A stretch of DNA of 37,512 nt from Octopus sinensis (Eukaryota). Shown piece after piece: positions 5,799 to 37,099 of this stretch (position 1 is the stretch's first letter; each line of letters opens with the position of its first letter). A program made the position numbers and the translations under genes. A model generated the notes under the pieces. It searched no databases. It was given only the letters and a program-made list of their open reading frames with translations, and was not told where the DNA came from. The DNA lies in contig NW_021836874.1 of assembly GCF_006345805.1 (NCBI RefSeq), positions 1 to 37,512 on the forward strand, in the 5' to 3' direction.

Positions 5799-6122
5799 TA
5801 GAGCATAGCAGACCGGTCCTAGCAGTGGTGGACAAGATGCATTACGTATGCTATATAGTTGATGTTGCATGTCACTTTGACCCTCAAATAATCAAGAAGT
5901 TAGGCGAAAAGATAGATAAATACAACCCTCACAAGAACGAAATAACCCGGCTATGGAAAATGAAAAAAGTAAAGATAATACCAAATATTGTTGGGTCCTT
6001 GGGAACAGTATCAGAAGGCATCAAGGAGAATATAAAAGAAATTGAAATAGAGTGCCCAGTAGAGCTGTTACAAAAGGTTTGCCTCCTTGTCACGACCAGA
6101 ATAATCAGGAAAGTATCAAATT
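5799..6122 (+). mobile_element. R4/Dong RLE-domain fragment; inverted duplicate of 6770-7069
   Basis: HSRPVLAVVDK..CYIVDVAC.FD..EKIDKY..RLWKMKKVKIIPNIVGSLG..LLQKVCLL; near-identical to the reverse complement of 6770-7069. Confidence 0.9.
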
Positions 6123-6689: not shown

Positions 6690-8185
6690 TTTCTCTTTAT
6701 CACAAGTTTTGTTGGAACTCCTGGGCTTGCTACCTGCAGCCAACGGCACCATGCTATTCGTTCTGTTCAGCTATCTAATACTTTCCTGATTACTCTGGCT
6801 GAGTTCTACTGGGCACTCTATTTCTATTTCCTTTATATTCTCCTGGATGCCTTCTGATACTGTTCTCAAGGACCCAACAATATTTGGTAATATTTTTACT
6901 TTTTTCATTTTCCATAACCAGGCTATTTCCGACTTGAGAGGGTTGTATTTATCTATCTTTTCGCCTAACTTCTTGATTATTTGAGGGTCAAAGTGGCATG
7001 CAACATCAACTATATAGCATACACAATGCATCTTGTCCACCACTGCTAGGACCGGTCTGCTATGCTCTAGCGCCTGCTTGATTTGGATTGGGATATCTCA
7101 GAAGGTTTACCTAGTCACAGACACCACCATTCTCTTCGGCCTGTGCTTATACCTCTCTCCAGCCTCCACTTTCCGCAGTTTCTGATGTAGTACTTTCACT
7201 ACCTGATCGTGTCGCCACAAATTGTATTGGTTTTGGGTAAGTCTAAGTTTCATTAACACTATTGCAGATGCGGTGCAGCGGAGACATTTGCTCATTCCTC
7301 AGGTTGATCACTCTCAGTTCGTAGCAAAAGCTTGGTCTTGCACTGCCATTATAGTGCTCTCGGTCACTTTTTTTAGTCTTCCTTTCATCTGCCAATCCCA
7401 CCCAACTATTTCAGAAACTTCTGCAGTGGCTACATAGAATTGATTGTGTAGTTCCTTGTTGCGAAATTCTTCTTCCTGTCCTCATGGTATTTTGTTTTCC
7501 TATTTCCTCAGGTCTCAATACTCCTTCGTTCTTAACTGTCACTAGCAAGGTTTCCCTACTTTGGGCTAGGTATCTCATTAAACTCTCGAGTTCGATACGC
7601 ACACAGTCTTTCAAACGTATCAACCCTCTTCCATTTGTCTCTTCATGTATAGGCGATCAGTGTCTTGCAGTGGATGATGGGCTCCACGCATCGTTAGAAA
7701 CTTTCTTGACTTCCTGTCCATCTCATTTAGCGCCTCTTCTATCCACTTCAAAATTCCAGCACCATACCAAACTACAGCGATTGCGCGCGAGTTTATAGCC
7801 GAAATTTCGTTTTTGGCATTCAGTTTTGAAGCCAATACTTTACTCAATCTCTGCAGGTATACTATTTTTTTTCTTTTCTTTCATGTTAGATTTGATTCCA
7901 TCTGCCTCAAGTATTCCCTAATATTTATAGTTGAATTCACTTCATCATTGCACCACTTGTCAAACTTATGCCGTCTGTCTTGACAAGCTTTCCTTGTCTC
8001 TTCACCATCGTGATACATTTTGAGAGTCCAAGCTCCATCTTAATATCACTGGAGAAAATCTGCACTGACTGGAATAGGTTGTCCAGTTCTGCTTCAGTTT
8101 TTGTGAATAGCTTCAGGTCGTCCATGAATAGAAAGTGGTTCAGTTTTCCTTTACACCTTCCCAGATCATACCCCAACTTTATTTT
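6690..8185 (-). mobile_element. 5'-truncated, frameshifted R4/Dong LINE (RT C-terminus, RHD region, RLE, 3' UTR)
   Basis: NHFLFMDDLKLF, SAINSRAIAVVWYGAG, DRLYMKRQ, RHDQVVKVLH and RLE motifs in several frames; (TAA)n on both sides. Confidence 0.92.
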
Positions 8186-10811: not shown

Positions 10812-11305
10812 GCTCTCATTGCTTCTCATCTTAACTGATTGGGAAGTGTTATCACGTACATTGTTTTGTCTTGGTATAAAAGATGGGCTACAGCAAATAT
10901 TCTGCTCAATACCACAGATTTGCTTGTCAGTTCTTTAACCTTAACCAGTTGACCATGTCCCTTAGTGTCTGACGATATGTGCATCTCTGATCACGAGCAG
11001 AAGTAGTGGGGAGCATCATAGTCAAGTGTTGAAAGGAATTCTTAGAGGTTTGGATAATTCCTCTTTGCAAGCACGGGTGGTTCGTTCAACATCCTTAAAC
11101 AATATTTATTCAGGGACCTTTTGAGCGGGATAGGCTACTCGACCAGAAGAAAATTCTAGAAGGTCATGTGCTGTTTATCTTCATATGAGATCACCATGTC
11201 GCGCACATATGGTTGTGATGCATGTGCCTGGTGTACCCTTATCAGACGGGTAGTCGTATATTTTACCCTAGTGTCATTTTGATAGCATGCACTGCTCTCA
11301 TTCAA
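10812..11305 (+). mobile_element. Non-coding TAA-associated interspersed repeat, copy 2
   Basis: (TAA)n on both sides (10550-10810 and 11305-11385); homologous to copies 1 and 3. Confidence 0.85.
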
Positions 11306-22645: not shown

Positions 22646-23422
22646 ATTTCTTTACTGCCCACAAGGGGCTACGCACAGAGGGAACAAACAAGGACAGACA
22701 AACGAATAAAGTCAATTATATCGACCCCAGTGCGTAACTGGTACTTATTTAATCGACCCCGAAAGGATGAAAGGCAAAGTCGACCTCGGCGGAATTCGAA
22801 TTCAGAACTTAACGGTAGAGAAAATACCTATTTCTTTACTACCCACAAGGGGCTAAACACAAAGAGGACAAACAAGGATAGACAAAGGAATTAGTCGATT
22901 ACATCGACCCTAGTGCGTAACTGGTACTTAATTTATCGACCCCGAAAGGATGAAAGGCAAAATCGACCTCGGCAGAATATGAACTCAGAGCGTATGGCAG
23001 ACGAAATACCTATTTTTTTACTACCCACAAGGAGCTAAACACAGAGGAGACAAAGACAGAGAAACGGATTAAGTCGATTATATCGACCCTAGTGCGTAAC
23101 TGGTACTTATTTAATCGACCCCGAAAGGATGAAAGGCAAAGTCGACCTCGGCGGAATTTGAACTCAGAACGTAGCGGCAGACGAAATACCTATTTCTTTA
23201 TTACCCACAAGGGGCTAAACATAAAGGGGACAAACAAGGGCAGACATAGGTATTAAGTCGATTACATCGACCCCGGTGCGTAACTGGTACTTAATTTATC
23301 GACCCCGAAAAGATGAAAGGCAAAGTCGACCTCGGCGGAATTTGAACTCACAACGTAGAGACAGACGAAATACCGATAAGCATTTCGCCCGGCGTGCTAA
23401 CGTTTCTGCTAGCTCACCACCT
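22646..23422 (-). mobile_element. Tetrameric SINE family B insertion (one complete unit plus three headless ~180-184 bp units) with a 17-bp target site duplication
   Basis: Plus-strand units start at ~22646, 22830, 23012 and 23192. Flanks are cttgacattttacttct (22628-22644) and cttgacgttttacttct (23421-23437). Confidence 0.92.
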
Positions 23423-26530: not shown

Positions 26531-26994
26531 GTTGAAATGCTTGACATATCGCCCTTAGAGTATTCCATTTTGGCTTGTCGATATACTTAGAGCGGTGAAG
26601 AAAATTCCACGGTGGTTTGTTCTGCCAGTTTGAGATCTGATTTCAAACCCCATTGAAGTCTTGATAATATAAAACTTCAAGCCAAAAACTGGGACGGTTA
26701 GTTCGAATTAACCCTTGTTGTAAACGGCTGGCCTTGTACCCAAGAAAATAATATTTAGAAGTTGAACTGCTTGACATATCGCTCTCAGAGTATTACATTT
26801 TGGATTGTCGATACACTTAGAGCGGTGACCAAAATGCCACGGTGGTTTGTTCTGCAAGTTTATGATTTGATTTCAAACCCCATTGAAGTCTTGATAAAAT
26901 AAAAGTTCAAGCCAAAATCTGGGACGTTTAGATCGAATTAATCTTTGTTGTAAAAGTCTGGCCTTGTACCTAAGAAATTAATATTTAGAGGTTG
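26531..26994. repeat. 230-bp tandem duplication
   Basis: gttgaaatgcttgacatatcgc at 26531 and gttgaactgcttgacatatcgc at 26761; collinear to aatatttaga. Confidence 0.95.
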
Positions 26995-28125: not shown

Positions 28126-28439
28126 GTTATATATAAAAAAAGACAGCTCATGCCGTCAAACACAAGAAATTCATTTATAATACACAACGGAGTCAGACAT
28201 CTTAGAGTTCATGTATAGTTGATATATAGTTCATGTATAGTTGATATATAGTTTGAAGTATATGTTCAAAGTGTTCGATGCAGTGGCCCACGGTGGCGAT
28301 ACGTATTCAATACAAAAAACAGATCAAAGTGGTGGAAAGCGGTCAATACAGAAGATTGATGTTTCCGAAAGAGCGAGGAATTCATTTTTACCTTAAGCAA
28401 TTGTGATGACCCATGGTGGAAGTTCGCTGGGTGGTATAT

Positions 28440-29585
28440 ATATATATACTCAGTATTGGGATACTTGGAACAAAACCTATATAAAAGTTGAAGAGAACTA
28501 CGGCATGGCATTTAAGAGACATATAGAGGACACTTGGAAAAGATACCTCAATGACTGTTTCCTAATCTGAACCAAATCCTTTTAAAATCTGGAAGAATTC
28601 GGTACCCTCCTCAAAAATCTATAACCTAGTCTCAAATTCACAAGATAAATGAGCAACACACAATTTCTTGACATAAGCATGATTAAAATCAACACCACAA
28701 TCACTACTGATATTTATTACAATAAGCACAGATACACACCAGTAACTAAATTTCAAATCATGCCACCCAACACGCACAAAATGCAATATCCCGTACTGTC
28801 TAGCCAGGATGATTTGTACTATAGTCGCCGATCCAAATACCAGAAATACACGACTTATAAAGCTCAAAGGATTTCTGCTCAAGCAAAATTATCCTTACCT
28901 ACTTATAGAAAATAGCATACAACGAGCAACTTAAGGCAACACAAAAAAGACGAACCCATCGAAGGAAGACAATACCATTTCTAGCAACACACTCCGCATC
29001 ACCAAAACATTTTTAACAGCATCAAAACAAATTTGCTAATCATAAAACAAATTGAAAAATTAAAAAAAAAACAACTTAATAGCTAATCAGACACTTATTT
29101 TAAGCAAAACGGCAACTACATAACCAAAAGAAAGTATTAACAAAGGGATAATTGTGCATTAAAAAACAGAGTAAAACTTTTACAGTACGCAAGTGTAATG
29201 ATAAAAGGAGAGGAACGTGTCAATACATGTATAATGGTAGATCTATTAGAACAAAAATTGGACAGATTTTCGCAAATGCAGATATGAACTGCAAAAGCAG
29301 AAATTTGATCTACTGCATTAAATGCCTGAATTGCACGGAACTATATATATAGGCGAGACAGGGAATGCATTATTAGAACGCTCACGAGTCCACACAGATA
29401 ACAAATGCGGAACACCAATGTTCCTCGAATTCCATTGAGGGAACATATACAGACAGGTGGTAAAAAAAATGCTTCTAATGTTTCCTTCCCACAAACTACA
29501 TGACACAAGTGAGATTGGAAGAGATATGAAAGAAAAACGGTTTATAAAATGTTCAAATCTAATCTGAACAGAAATACCAACAATA
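28440..29585 (+). mobile_element. Decayed Penelope-like element (Neptune-like): RT C-terminus, linker and GIY-YIG endonuclease
   Basis: WKRYLNDCFLI (a YLDD variant), FLDI..TTDIYY, LNFKSCHP..KCNIPYCLARMICTIV, KCNDKRRGTC and NCKSRNLIYCIKCLNCTELY[frameshift]IGETG..ERSRVH; many stops and frameshifts. Confidence 0.9.
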
Positions 29586-29729
29586 CTATAACAACCATTT
29601 AACGATGTGGATTAGAAAATATCTCTAGCATATGAATATAAACAAATTACAGATTATCGGAAGACCTGGCAAACCATGATGTTTAAACTGCATTCGGATT
29701 GGTGAAAACCGTATTTTAAACAGTCAGCC

Positions 29730-29777
29730 TCCAAAATATTTTCGTCGCTTTGAGGCCGCGACCTGTTCACTGACAAA
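29730..29777 (-). ncRNA. Minimal hammerhead-like motif with a G3:C8 core
   Basis: Minus strand reads TTTGTCA-GTGAACA-G-GTCGC(GGCCTCAAA)GCGAC-GAAA-ATAT-TT-TGG: 5-bp stem II, palindromic AAAATATTTT, only 2-3 bp of stem I. Confidence 0.55.
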
Positions 29778-30121
29778 GATTCGTACTGCACGAAGAGATG
29801 CAGCACGAAGCGCGCGCACATATATATTATTCAAAGCAATCCCAACTCAGTTTTTTATGTTTTATTTATATTCTTTATAATATTAATGTAGAATATAGAA
29901 TATATAGCATAAATAGTATATATAGTAAGATAAAATGAAGTATTGATTGTCTTTTTGAATAGATGATATGTTGAATATAAATTATTAAATATTAAGGGAC
30001 TAGTATACTTTCTTGTATTATAGCAGTCATCAAGGTCCCAGGTTGTGACCGGAGTGTTTCAACTGTGGTTGACTGCCTGTCTTTTCTCCTTTATATATGT
30101 TCCTGTGGGCAGTAGTAGTAG

Positions 30122-30164
<43 letters not shown>

Positions 30165-30166
<2 letters not shown>

Positions 30167-30430
30167 GGTCCCGGGTTGATCCGGGGTTAACCACAGTAAG
30201 TAAGGTACTCAATACATAGCAGAGTAAAATTAATTTATTATATAGAAGGAGCTTCTACAGGACTAGTACTGTTTCATTCAAGAGAAATCTTCAGGAAGCT
30301 ATTTAACATTTAGGCAGGTTTAAAGGAGTGGTGGTAGGGGACTTTTTTGGGGGTAGGCATAGCGCAAAATATCATACTTGGGGGAGTGGTCAAGGAGTCA
30401 GTGGTAAGTTAGATGAAAGAATAGATAAAT
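30165..30430 (-). mobile_element. Hammerhead-bearing pLTR-like cassette, long copy
   Basis: Contains the motif at 30250-30300. Its minus-strand 3' end runs into (TA)n, and 30233-30336 is inverted relative to 32869-32995. Confidence 0.75.
30250..30300 (-). ncRNA. Type I hammerhead ribozyme, identical to 32928-32978
   Basis: Exact reverse complement of AGCTTC-CTGAAGA-TTTC(TCTT)GAAT-GAAA-CAG(TACTAGTC)CTG-TA-GAAGCT. Confidence 0.85.
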
Positions 30431-30479
30431 AAAAAAATAAAAAATAAAAAATAAAAAATAGAAAAATAAAAAATAAAAT

Positions 30480-30565
30480 GTGTGCACATACATACATAAA
30501 CACATATACATACACACACACATACGTACACATGTGTGCCTATACATACCTACACATACACACAT

Positions 30566-30628
<63 letters not shown>

Positions 30629-30976
30629 ATATATATATATATATACACAATCCAATACAGGCCCATTCCCTAATTTTAATTTTATTATCTTCATTTATTA
30701 CTTTTGTTATCTTTGATCGCTAGAGCTAAGGATCCTGGCGATGGCAGCATGTCCAAATTGTCTGTCTACTAGAAGGCAAGTACTCGTTCCCGCACGCACA
30801 CTCATAGCACGTACATACACCCATTCGTACACTCATACACATACACGTACGCACGCGTTATATTCATACATACAAACATCTACATACGTTCACGTATATA
30901 CACATACGTACTCGTACCTACAGATTCATGTCTACACTTTAGGAGGCTAGTCTATATATACACCAATAAATATACA

Positions 30977-31008
<32 letters not shown>

Positions 31009-31134
31009 CACATATACACATACACACACACACACACATATATATACTCCTACATACAGATACATACCTATATATATATATATATATATACCCACACATA
31101 CATGTACATATATATATATATTATACATACATAC

Positions 31135-31169
<35 letters not shown>

Positions 31170-31397
31170 CATATACATACATACATACACACACACCCAT
31201 ATATATACACACACATACATACACATATATATACATACACAAACATATATACACACATATATATATATATACATATATACACACATACATACACACACCT
31301 ACATACATATACACACAAACACATACATACGTAAACATACATACATACCTCCATACATCCATACTTACATGCACTTATACGCATACCACACCCCCAT

Positions 31398-31460
<63 letters not shown>

Positions 31461-32001
31461 CACACTCACACATACATATACAAATATACGCCCACACATA
31501 CATACATACATACACGTATACGCATACACGCACATACACATATACATGCGTACCCATACACGTGCCCACACGCACATGCATCCATATGTATACACACACA
31601 CACATATATACACGTGTGCAAGCATACACACATACTCATACACGCACACATACTTACATATACATATATGCACACACTTACACACATATATACATACACA
31701 TATACATGCATACATACATATATGCATACATACACATACACGCACATACACATATACACATGCGTACCCATACACGTGCACGCACGCACGCGCATCTATA
31801 TATATACACACGCACACATATATATACACGTGTGCAAGCATACATACATACTCATACACGCGCACATACTTACATATACATATATGCACACACTTCCACA
31901 CATATATACATACACATATACATGCATACATACATATATGCATACATACACACACGCGCACTCATATATACATATACATATACACACACACATATATATA
32001 C

Positions 32002-32044
<43 letters not shown>

Positions 32045-32148
32045 TACACATATACACATACACACATATACATACATATACACATACATATATATACACA
32101 TATACACATACACATACATGCACACATACACACACATACACATACACC

Positions 32149-32188
<40 letters not shown>

Positions 32189-32280
32189 TACACACACATA
32201 CACATATACACATACATATATACACACATACATACATATACATACACACACACATACATATATACACGGATACACATACC

Positions 32281-32325
<45 letters not shown>

Positions 32326-32769
32326 TACACACACACACACATATACACATGCATATACTTATATCTCTACATACTCACATATAAACATATATATATATAC
32401 ACACACACATATATATACATGTACACACACATACACATATACATACATATATACACATACACACATACATATATATATATATATATACACATACATATAC
32501 ACATATATACATATATATATACATATATATATATATACATATACCCCCACATATATACATATATATATATATATACACACACACACACCCACACACACAC
32601 ATACATATACACATATACATGTATACATACGCAATAATGATACACATATATACACATACACACACACAGACAGATGCATATACATACATATATATATAAA
32701 AATTACATATCTATATAAATACATACATAATACACATATACACACACATATATACATACATATACATAC

Positions 32770-32804
<35 letters not shown>

Positions 32805-32822
32805 TATATATATTATATATAT

Positions 32823-32856
<34 letters not shown>

Positions 32857-32868
32857 ATATATATAATA
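30480..32868. repeat. Long (TA)/(CA)/(TACA) microsatellite field with a ~214 bp higher-order duplication
   Basis: catgcgtacccatacacgtgc occurs at ~31545 and ~31759, with collinear sequence downstream of each. Confidence 0.92.
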
Positions 32869-32927
32869 TACCACCACTCCTTTAAACCTGCCTAAATGTA
32901 TAAATGCTAATACAATTCTTGTTAAAT

Positions 32928-32978
32928 AGCTTCCTGAAGATTTCTCTTGAATGAAACAGTACTAGTCCTGTAGAAGCT
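32928..32978 (+). ncRNA. Type I hammerhead ribozyme
   Basis: 6-bp stem I AGCTTC/GAAGCT, canonical CUGAAGA and GAAA boxes, stem II TTC/GAA under a U-U pair, stem III CAG/CTG and a GUA site after 32972. Confidence 0.85.
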
Positions 32979-32989
32979 CCTTCTATATA

Positions 32990-33032
<43 letters not shown>

Positions 33033-33579
33033 TAGATAGATAGGTAGATAGATAGACAGAGTTATATACGCGTGTGTATGTAGACACGCACACACAAACT
33101 TACACATAAGCTTGGGAATATGCGTGTGTGTGTATCCATTGGGCGTTATGCCCACACTGCCAAAAGAATACTGAATATGGTAAATACAAGCCTGCACATG
33201 TCTTTTATGCATCAATATGTCTACGTTACTTTGGGTTATGCATATCCAGACTGCCAAGAAGATCAAAGGGAAGAATCCAAAGATTATAATCAAAGAAAAA
33301 TCAAAACCAATGAATTCTGATAGGAATTTTGATTGCTTTCGAACAAGACGTCATCCAGACGACCGTCGAGAATCTCTTGAGGCCGATGATCTAAAGAAAT
33401 GCGTAGTATTATGAGAGAACAATGGAACCGAAGATAAATATTATGTTAGATAATATTAAAAATAACAAATAGATTTAAAATCAATATACAAGTTCAAACT
33501 TTTATTCAAAATCGAAAACCATTCACTCAGTATGATATTTTCGATCCGATAACACATAACGTAAAGCAAATGATACATA

Positions 33580-33988: not shown

Positions 33989-34543
33989 TGAGTGAGAGAG
34001 CAGTGCATGCCATCGATGTGATACTGGGTAAAATATACGTAGCCCAGTATACCCATCATGACAACCAGTCTGATAAGGGTGCACAAGGCACATGCATCAC
34101 AAACATATGTGCGTGACTTGGTGATCCCATATCAAGATATACAGCACATGACCTTGCAGGTGGGGCCCAGTTAGACTATTCTTCTGGTCGAGTAACCCAT
34201 CCTGCTCAAAAGGGCCTTGAATAAGGGTTGTTTAAGTATGTTGAACGAAACACCCATATTTCCAAAGATTAATTATTCAAACCCCTAAGAATACTTCTCA
34301 ACACATGGCTATGATGCTCCCCACTACTTCTGCTCGTGATCAGAGATGCACATATCGTCAGACACAAATGGACATGCTCAACTGGTTAAGGTCAAACATC
34401 TGACAAGCAAATCTGTGGTATTGAGCAGAATATTTGCTGTAGCCCATCTTTTATACCAAGACAAAACAATGTACATGATAACACTTCCAATCAGCCAAGA
34501 TCAGAAGCCACGAGAGCCAGTGCCTGGTGCTGCATCAAGGCAT
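33989..34543 (-). mobile_element. Non-coding TAA-associated interspersed repeat, copy 3 (longest)
   Basis: (TTA)n on both sides; homologous to copies 1 and 2. Confidence 0.88.
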
Positions 34544-34630: not shown

Positions 34631-36917
34631 GTTTGACTTTTGTTTATATTTGTACAAGTAGGCTCCAAGTCTCACCCAGAGACCTCAAGAGACAACAGGC
34701 TGGAAGTTCACGTTGTTGTTATGCCTAGTGTGCCATATATTTGGTTGTTTTTTCTGTTGTACTAGTGGATGTCTAAAAAAAAAATGTTTTTTTTAAACCT
34801 TGAGATTACATAGAAAGTATTTTGCGTAGGATATGAGCAGTTCCCATGAGCACTATCTTTTGAATTTCTGCCATTTTTGGGTTTCCTGGTATCTGAGTTA
34901 GGTAGCAATCAGCCTCTTTTGCTATTATTCCCAGGGCACCTATGACAACAGGTATTGTTTTAGTCTTCAGGTTGCATATTTTGCTGATTTCTATTTCAAG
35001 ATCTTTAATATTTGCTCAGTTTTTGGTAGGACTTGACAAATACGTTTATATCGATTGGGACAGTCATATCAATGAGGAGGCATGTTCTTTGTTTGAAGTC
35101 TTTCAATATGATGTTTGGCCTATTTGCATCTATCTTTCTGTCAGTTTGAATGGTGAAGTTCCAGAGGAGTGAGATGTGGTCATTTTCAAGCACTGGGGAT
35201 GGTTTATGTTCCCACCAGTTTTTTTCATGGGCAAATCCAGGTTTTTGCAGATTACCCAGTGAATATATTGTGCAGCTCTATCATGCCTGTTGAGATACTC
35301 TGTAGGCGCTAGAGGACTGCACTTGGAGACCACATGATCAATGGTTTCATTTTGTTGCTGACATACACGACATGTTGGGCTACAACCGATCTTTAATATG
35401 TTGGCCTGGTAGTTTCTTGTTGGTAGGCATTGATCTTGAGCTGCTATGATAACCCACTCTGTTTCAGATTTTAAGCCAGAGGCCATTAGCCATTGATGGG
35501 TCAGGGCTCTGTCAACATCTGCATTATTCGCTCTATTTGGGTATTTGCCATAGAGAGGTTTTTCTTGCCATTTATCATTCAGAATATCTAAGGCCGCAGA
35601 TTTAGCACGGGTTTTCATGCGCTTAGCTTTTTCTGTGCCTGTTTCTTATATGTCTATCTCTAATTCCGAAATCTGTTGTATTCGGAATTCACTTAGATAC
35701 TCCTTTGCCTGTTTTGTTACTGAGTATGATGCTTTCTTGTTTTCATGTTTTGAGACAAGTTTTAACATCCAGTCCTCAGAGTTTTTCAGGTAGGTGTCTA
35801 GGCCAATTGTAGCAATCTTCATTGTTATTTCCAGTTGTAAAAGTCCACGGCCTCCCTCTTTTCTTGGCAGATAAAGTCGTTCTGTATCTGCCTTAGGGTG
35901 GTGCATTCTATGCATTGTCAACAGTTTTCGTATTTTTCTGTCAAGATTACATATTTCAGTAATTGACCAGTTAACGATATTGAAACTGTAAGTCACGACT
36001 GGTATGGCTAATGCATTGATCGCTTCGATCCTGTTTCTCGCATCAGCTCTGTCTTGAGTATTGCTCTTACTCTGCGATAGCATTCTCTCCTGATCCTTTC
36101 CTTCATCTCTGAATACCTTATTCCGTCTCCTTCAATTACCCCTAGATACTTGTAGTTCTCCGCTGGGTCTAATTCTTTTATAACATTCTGCTGGTCAAGG
36201 TTAACGTTAGATGTGTCTGTCATTTTTCCTTTGATAAAGGTAGCTTTTGCACATTTATCGAGGCCAAATTGCATTCTGATGTCATCACTGAATTGTTTGA
36301 CAATCGCTAGTAAGCCATTGAGTTGTTGGTCATTTTTTGGAAAGAGCTTTAAATCATCCATGTAAATGAGATGATTTATATTTTTATCAAACATTTTATA
36401 TCCGTACTGTGCGTCATTGAGCAGTTTTGAGAGAAGTACTAAGGCTAAACAGAAGAGGAGTGGTGATAGTGAGTCACCCCGGAAAATGCCACATGAAATT
36501 TTTACATCACCAGCATTTAGAGATTCATTGTCACTGTTCAAAGTTAGTGTGGTTCTCCATGATCTCATACTTACAGACAAAAAGTTTCGCAGAGTAGGTG
36601 CTATTTTATACATTTCTAGGTATTTCTTAATCCAGCTATGTGGTAGGCTATCAAAAGCCTTTTTATAGTCTATCCAGGCTATTGGTAAGTTTTTGTGTCG
36701 TTTGTGACAATCTTCTAAGATCATCTTATTGATGAGTAGTTGATCTTTACAACCTTAGGATCCACGTTTACTTCCTTTCTGTTCATTAGGGAATATGCTG
36801 CTGTCCGTCAAAAAGCTATAGGTATATTCCGTCAGGACAGATGTTAGTGTTTTATACATAGTTGTTAAGCAGGTTATGGGTCTATAGTTTTTTGGTTCAT
36901 TTGTTTCTTCACTTTTT
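34630..36917 (-). mobile_element. 5'-truncated R4/Dong LINE: RT, CCHC/RHD, RLE and 3' UTR, with few disruptions
   Basis: NYRPITCL, WIDYKKAFDS, GIFRGDSLSPLLF, YMDDLKLF, CRVC..H...C..RHD, NRPNII..LLIDMTVP, QKIVLMGTAHILRKILSM*; (TAA)n tail. Confidence 0.96.
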
Positions 36918-37005
36918 TTCTTGCTCTGTCTATACTTGTTGCAAAGTGTCCAGTGGACAATCCTTGCTATTTTGTCATGACGTCTCTTATATTCTTTCTG
37001 GACTG
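36918..37005 (-). mobile_element. RHD-region fragment of a different R4/Dong copy, fused to the RT
   Basis: VQKEYKRRHDKIARIVHWTLCNKY lies upstream of the RT motif NYRPI, which is out of normal domain order. Confidence 0.85.
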
Positions 37006-37099
37006 AATAGCACACACATGCATTTAGAAAAACAATATTTGACGATCAATTAATAATAATAAATAATATGTGTGCATATATGGCTGCAGGACATCACCA

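Follow-up and report, generated by a model that had tools for sequence, protein, structure and literature searches.

A stretch of Octopus sinensis DNA (contig NW_021836874.1, 37,512 nucleotides, hereafter the window) carries two hammerhead ribozyme motifs in inverted arms on either side of a long microsatellite, and we wondered whether the two arms and the sequence between them arrived together. The original prediction was of a young, non-autonomous insertion of Penelope-like element (PLE) type with inverted pseudo-LTRs (pLTRs). In the reading that we put forward, with about half of our confidence behind it, the arms are pieces of the hammerhead end of a protein-free, abundant repeat family, likely a PLE pLTR, and were likely laid down by one insertion from one source RNA. 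That both arms go back to a common source, in whatever form, we hold with good confidence. As the layout is known PLE biology, the locus alone is a modest finding.

Unequal arms and their hammerhead motifs

Arm-to-arm comparison bore out the predicted inverted repeats, exact apart from a 23-nt indel: once the 23 nt at 32898-32920 are taken out of 32869-32995 (127 nt), what remains is the exact reverse complement of 30233-30336 (104 nt). The gap between the arms can be placed in four equal alignments, that is, within a 3-nt TGT microhomology. No substitution separates the arms over 104 nt (95% upper bound 2.8%), from which we infer an age that would be under ~4 million years if the rate given in PMC13282606 applies. 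The arms are unequal in extent. The left copy reaches 30164 on its outer side and ~30478 on its inner side, with family sequence in both extensions (Table 1); the outer extension, the tail, closes in the centroid fold with a GC hairpin of 5 bp whose loop is AC-rich (an unremarkable z of -1.5). The description of the arms as inverted pLTRs thus holds for their pLTR-like, inverted character but not for their status, as they are pieces of a ~300-bp unit and not dedicated terminal repeats. A MITE/TIR element was rejected, as equal terminal inverted repeats defining the element ends are absent and the left copy carries family sequence beyond the shared part on both sides. No target-site duplication (TSD) is readable because both flanks are TA; the longest word common to them has 9 nt and is mostly TA. 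The window contains no N.

Table 1. Features of the inverted pair and its surroundings (positions in the window)
Feature	Position	Strand	Remarks
Decayed Neptune/Nematis-type PLE ORF, separate from the pair	28400..29570	+	RT C-terminal half, CX2-5CxxC linker remnant, GIY-YIG
Third, decayed type I hammerhead	29996..30039	-	Relaxed descriptor; extra core base, palindromic 6-nt stem III
(TA)20 tract, left outer junction	30123..30163	.	Likely insertion target; an AGT repeat precedes it, ending at 30122
69-nt extension (tail), left copy only	30164..30232	-	Covered by family contigs in 4 of 4 runs
Left arm (pLTR piece)	30233..30336	-	23-nt family segment missing (gap between 30305 and 30309); base at 30336 near-private
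Type I hammerhead motif, left	30250..30300	-	Predicted cut after 30256 (GUA)
Upstream part of family unit	30337..30478	-	T-rich tract at its end (A-rich on +, 30427-30478)
Interior: old compound (CA/TA) microsatellite	30479..32868	.	Strand-uniform, 413 CA vs 38 TG
Short non-repetitive block	30650..30790	.	No second copy within the window
Right arm: 5'-truncated, tail-less pLTR piece	32869..32995	+	Has the 23-nt segment (32898-32920); stops at a recurrent family end
Type I hammerhead motif, right	32928..32978	+	Predicted cut after A32972 (GUA)
(TA)n tract, right outer junction	32996..33030	.	Followed by (GATA)n

Both ribozyme motifs face outward to (TA)n, as the letters confirm. Each is built of a 6-bp stem I, CUGAAGA, a 3-bp stem II closed by U-U, GAAA and a 4-bp stem III with an 8-nt near-palindromic loop, which agrees with the near-palindromic stem III noted at the outset. 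Both arms have the hammerhead core (CUGANGA and GAAA, an NUH cut site, stems I and III). A type I descriptor (stem I of at least 6 bp, CUGANGA, GAAA, stem III of at least 3 bp, UH) matched the window exactly twice, once on each strand, and 100 block shuffles gave a mean of 0.02 matches, with none of them reaching two. No hammerhead was found in Rfam searches, either among the 3 matches of the right arm up to E 10 or among the best 150 of 209 matches of the whole window. In the standard position numbering, the G10.1-C11.1 closing pair of stem II is absent and U-U stands there in both arms; these places show no family-wide difference of 5% or more in the four sequencing runs described below. The G10.1-C11.1 pair is reported as conserved in hammerheads in PMC4209133.

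The repeat family and its probable PLE relatives

To see the arms beside other copies, we turned to sequencing runs. A run search listed 24 runs, 20 of them with part of 29300-30425, under three organism labels and from 8 studies. Four of the 24 (X1, X5, X7 and X15) were compared by their assembled contigs over 30160-30430; X1 and X7 are DNA by guess, X5 is unstated and X15 is RNA by guess, no matching run being recorded as RNA. Aligned to these 271 bases were 1900 (X1), 1178 (X5), 1661 (X7) and 92 (X15) contigs, whose summed depth is not a copy number, and family depth was present in 28 of 28 bins in each run. The arms are therefore pieces of a ~300-bp unit that is abundant under three organism labels. 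Exact-pattern scans gave no match in metagenome, viral-contig and prokaryote-genome collections, and an autonomous partner sharing this pLTR did not turn up.

Of the loose ends of these contigs, 24 of 117 were listed. Among these, 12 contigs of X1, 14 of X5 and 12 of X7 had (TA)n immediately ahead of 30233, the exact counterpart of the right arm's end. The family thus has two outer ends 69 nt apart, the inner one repeatedly joined to (TA)n and the extension to 30164 covered by contigs. Also among the listed ends, all four runs show the 23-nt segment at 30306/30308; it is thus family sequence that the left arm has lost. An A-rich tract followed 30429 in listed ends of X5, X7 and X15, and then TA in X5 and X7. 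Separately, listed ends at 30228 in X1 (7 contigs) and X5 (2) belong to a sister subfamily that shares the tail and apparently has a different stem I 3' strand, which suggests several hammerhead variants on one tail.

Single letters tie the arms to each other. At 30267 and its counterpart 32961, both carry a letter that 86.5-91.6% of family depth lacks, a minority allele of 8-14%; in X15, one 59-nt contig matches with this allele and without other differing letters. At 30336, 99.6-100% of family depth has G, which makes this the left arm's sole near-private substitution. It coincides with the right arm's first base (32869) and creates a TA dinucleotide. As for divergence across the family, 646 of 1900, 442 of 1178 and 470 of 1661 contigs of X1, X5 and X7 (28-38%) were at least 99% alike. 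Independent insertions of an abundant, homogeneous family had been named at the outset as what would count against the prediction; half of this holds, as the family is abundant, but it is not homogeneous (X1 being the example with 646 of 1900), and because the arms in addition share a minority allele, a common source is still favoured.

The remains of a coding PLE lie close by. The decayed ORF 0.6 kb from the pair has many stops and frameshifts, and phmmer on its frames found 302 relatives, with E down to 6e-22. Among five relatives scanned with Pfam, GIY-YIG was present in 5 and RVT_1 in 4; the decayed frames themselves gave 0 Pfam families and no match in a word-based protein search. By tblastn, one of these relatives aligned in four pieces (E 2e-45), among which are the GIY-YIG motif and what is left of a CX4CxxC linker; according to PMC8557442, a CX2-5CxxC linker marks Neptune and Nematis. 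No RT and GIY-YIG ORF was found between or beside the pLTRs by tblastn with 150 PLE-like proteins, this separate neighbour being the sole ORF remnant, and the structure is for that reason at best non-autonomous. The third hammerhead is antisense to the old ORF, lies in its 3' flank and has the same direction as the young left copy; it is probably a separate, older pLTR fragment. Homology of the young tail to the lead-in of this third hammerhead was rejected, as 274 of 1000 shuffles scored as well.

The layout is a known one. In the accounts of inverted-pLTR EN+ PLEs (Arkhipova et al. 2013, PMC3846280; Craig et al. 2021, PMC8557442), an inverted 5'-truncated copy with a tail on one end only is the typical layout; the outward pLTRs, the one-sided tail and the microhomology deletions recur here, as probably do the truncation of one pLTR and the microsatellite targets that hide TSDs. 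As in these elements, the octopus terminal repeat holds a hammerhead with a palindromic stem III, and its two fixed ends correspond to the optional 3' tail, although 69 nt exceeds the published 30-40. The locus differs from them in having no ORF and in the 2.4 kb of microsatellite that separates its arms. In rotifers, pLTRs are described that enclose captured non-coding host DNA (PMC3846280), and the CX2-5CxxC linker is hypothesised to drive the microsatellite bias of Neptune (PMC8557442).

The metazoan PLE type I hammerheads covered by Cervera and de la Pena 2014 (PMC4209133) share the core, the palindromic stem III and the mostly solo, genome-wide copies; compared with them, the octopus motif has a short, U-U-closed stem II (3 bp) and a longer stem III (4 bp and the 8-nt loop), and its copies are spaced by 2.6 kb, as against the opposite-strand pairs 100-700 bp apart reported there for Schistosoma. 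Animal non-LTR retrozymes, as bioRxiv 10.64898/2026.07.22.740005 describes them, are likewise non-coding, with a type I hammerhead and a proposed PLE-pLTR origin, but are head-to-tail tandem units, whereas the octopus copies are solo and inverted. A non-LTR retrozyme was rejected on this ground: the locus has no tandem array with the motif, that is, not the at least two head-to-tail hammerhead units. Poseidon from Anolis (PAc; Frangieh et al. 2024, PMC11167929) has the same AC-rich stem-loop downstream of the hammerhead and AT-rich targets; its tail is the distance between two RT start sites in that stem-loop. PAc, an autonomous element, has an ORF that begins within the hammerhead, whereas the ATG inside the octopus motif meets a stop after four codons. 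Overall, the architecture is that of known PLEs and the family is apparently undescribed: a literature search, with supplements and repeat libraries outside its range, found no octopus hammerhead family.

One insertion or separate events

How old is the interior? It spans ~2.4 kb and is closed by a TA-rich run (32772-32868), and tblastn with 150 PLE-like proteins gave no match in 30000-33500, in keeping with the expectation of no recognisable protein. A 'unique block' had been seen at ~30650-30950; its part from ~30650 to 30790 is indeed unique in the window, but 30790-30940 is decayed microsatellite matching the interior (E 7e-11). Inside the interior lies a 216-bp tandem duplication (31497-31972) with 13 mismatches in 212 aligned bases (~6%). 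As the arms show 0 in 104, the interior is older than the arms. It follows that the microsatellite was not seeded by the arm insertion, and this part of the original prediction is not supported; that an insertion mobilised the microsatellite is plausible.

A single event could account for these features as follows. A PLE RT/GIY-YIG protein acting in trans, probably of Neptune type, would nick the two strands of a (TA)n tract, and from each 3' end cDNA would be primed inward; the PAc protein is reported to cut and extend both strands in AT-rich DNA (PMC11167929). The left strand would begin at the outer start site, so that the tail is kept, copy the unit, with the 23 nt skipped or later lost at the TGT microhomology, and continue on a read-through transcript into the old microsatellite, ~2.4 kb long, that lay upstream of its source. 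The right strand would begin at the inner site, without the tail, halt after 127 nt and join by TA microhomology. The geometry fits an inverted 5'-truncated copy at the 5' side; the single event is what we infer.

On the letters, a single event is favoured by the minority allele shared by both arms at 8-14% of family depth, and would also explain 104 nt free of substitutions and the 30336/32869 coincidence; by analogy, outward arms with a one-sided tail match the published PLE layout. Against it, inverted copies are usually adjacent in the published cases, with the shorter tails given above, and an abundant family in a region with this much TA offers a large target for separate insertions: pure TA runs in the 2.9-kb region of the pair hold 488 of the window's 1362 such bases (36%), in 19 of 50 runs. 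The T at 32869 may, moreover, come from the TA tract itself, and the allele frequencies may differ in the window's own animal, the best run having only 0.43 of the query words. Two independent insertions of one young subfamily, into different TA runs of a long, native microsatellite and inverted by chance, are an alternative that we consider unlikely. In its favour, each arm is separately bordered by TA-rich sequence, family copies in X5 and X7 have TA after their A-rich tract, and the minority allele marks a real subfamily, as the 59-nt X15 contig indicates. PLEs, moreover, favour insertion in or beside earlier PLE copies (PMC6765202), and an old Neptune-type neighbour is present. Separate insertions would nonetheless require an outward orientation (1 in 4), the shared allele, the coincidence at 30336 and full identity over 104 nt in a family of which only 28-38% of contigs are at least 99% alike.

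Somewhat less probable still is a common source with a native interior, in which a single protein-RNA complex began synthesis at two TA runs separated by 2.7 kb, or a transcript or repair template from the left locus gave rise locally to the right arm before the left one lost its 23 nt. The shared alleles would be explained equally well, the interior is old, and microsatellite-like sequence continues past the right arm. The PLE literature that we examined offered no precedent, however, and the present left arm cannot have templated the right one, as it lacks the 23 nt; the reverse is excluded, since the right arm is shorter at both ends. An assembly or polishing artefact in this repeat-dense region would be in line with arms embedded in microsatellite at a locus known from the assembly alone, but we regard it as very improbable: the arms differ by a clean 23-nt segment and by their ends, the right arm's end and the segment match features of real family copies, polishing pushes to the majority and not to a minority allele, and the window is free of N. 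We thus keep one insertion from one source RNA as the preferred reading. Of the originally proposed young, non-autonomous PLE-type insertion, the PLE-type, protein-free and recent character and the inverted pLTR-like arms stand; the arms are not dedicated repeats, and the single event is favoured with independent insertions as a possible alternative.

If a non-autonomous PLE unit does carry kilobases of microsatellite, it would offer a concrete route for microsatellite spread in octopus. Penelope elements with SSRs have been reported in shrimp (PMC7878876).

Ribozyme folding and candidate editing

Can the ribozyme act at this locus? The folding z-score of the hammerhead is -0.5, unremarkable, and the monomer's minimum-free-energy fold mispairs the core (-8.5 against -7.3 kcal/mol for the ribozyme fold). 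A dimer through stem III is predicted at -27.0 kcal/mol, against -14.6 for two monomers (2 x -7.3), so the palindrome is predicted to suit dimers, and a cis dimer is regarded as necessary for metazoan PLE hammerheads in PMC4209133 and PMC6765202. Such a cis dimer cannot form here because each strand has only one sense copy. It had been suggested that a transcript spanning both arms could fold back on itself. Its geometry is right for that, but the predicted arm-arm duplex (-177.6 kcal/mol, ~100 bp) would tie up the ribozyme (-7.3) and keep it from cutting. In such a transcript the antisense arm would be made first, and on these modelled energies the duplex would outcompete the ribozyme fold, burying the ribozyme and inviting editing by ADAR. 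In the reading that carries about half of our confidence, the ribozyme is a passenger at this locus; PAc is reported to insert in vitro without any need for hammerhead cleavage (PMC11167929).

Differences confined to X15 raise the matter of editing in the family. At 30253, 30256 and 30264 this run has T>C in 6.9, 6.1 and 12.4% of depth (10, 9 and 11 contigs), whereas the same changes reach at most 0.06% in X1, X5 and X7. These are three of the five substitution rows across the four runs, all specific to X15 and all A>G on the ribozyme strand; their right-arm equivalents are 32975, 32972 and 32964. Cleavage is predicted at nucleotide 30256; 30264 belongs to the loop of stem III, which is paired only in the dimer or in a longer duplex. 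We think it probable that these changes are A-to-I editing of the hammerhead family. Octopus hyper-editing is described as exceptionally high and mostly in inverted repeats (PMC5625713; PMC9068888), and an engineered hammerhead with inosine as the second H of the triplet is reported to be ~30-fold slower (PMC3923133). All three sites are in UAG/AAG context (P ~0.002), which carries little weight, as octopus has a reduced preference for a downstream G (PMC5625713). Against editing, the signal comes from a single run that is RNA by guess and from a sample other than the DNA samples, and the changes could instead stem from one divergent expressed copy, in line with the similar depths at the sites (117-122). 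The X15 RNAs come mostly from other family copies: at 30267, 87.8% have the majority letter.

Editing at the cut site, if true, would link the in-vivo role of PLE hammerheads with the targets of cephalopod repeat editing. More broadly, and in our judgement improbably, octopus ADAR might edit the cleavage nucleotide and so switch the ribozyme down, while inverted pairs would supply the dsRNA and bring old microsatellite, kilobases at a time, to new (TA)n sites, and so help to spread the microsatellites with which octopus genomes are filled. Our literature search found nothing that joins Penelope, hammerhead and A-to-I editing.

Other repeats lie elsewhere in the window. On the minus strand, 35130-37045 holds a fragmented non-LTR retrotransposon RT; its LINE RT at 36008-36751 shares 86% identity, across 64% of its length, with a protein of Octopus vulgaris, the highest value among the best 120 of 1427 matches. 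Two LINE-like pairs are also inverted: 5799-6066 with 6802-7069 (94% over 268 bp, 735 bp apart) and 10812-11299 with 33996-34517 (83% over ~500 bp). At 26531-26994 a 230-bp unit occurs twice in tandem (89% identity) and matches nothing else in the window. A 184-bp unit that may resemble an octopus SINE is repeated four times in tandem at 22646-23374, and diverged copies of it are dispersed across the window.
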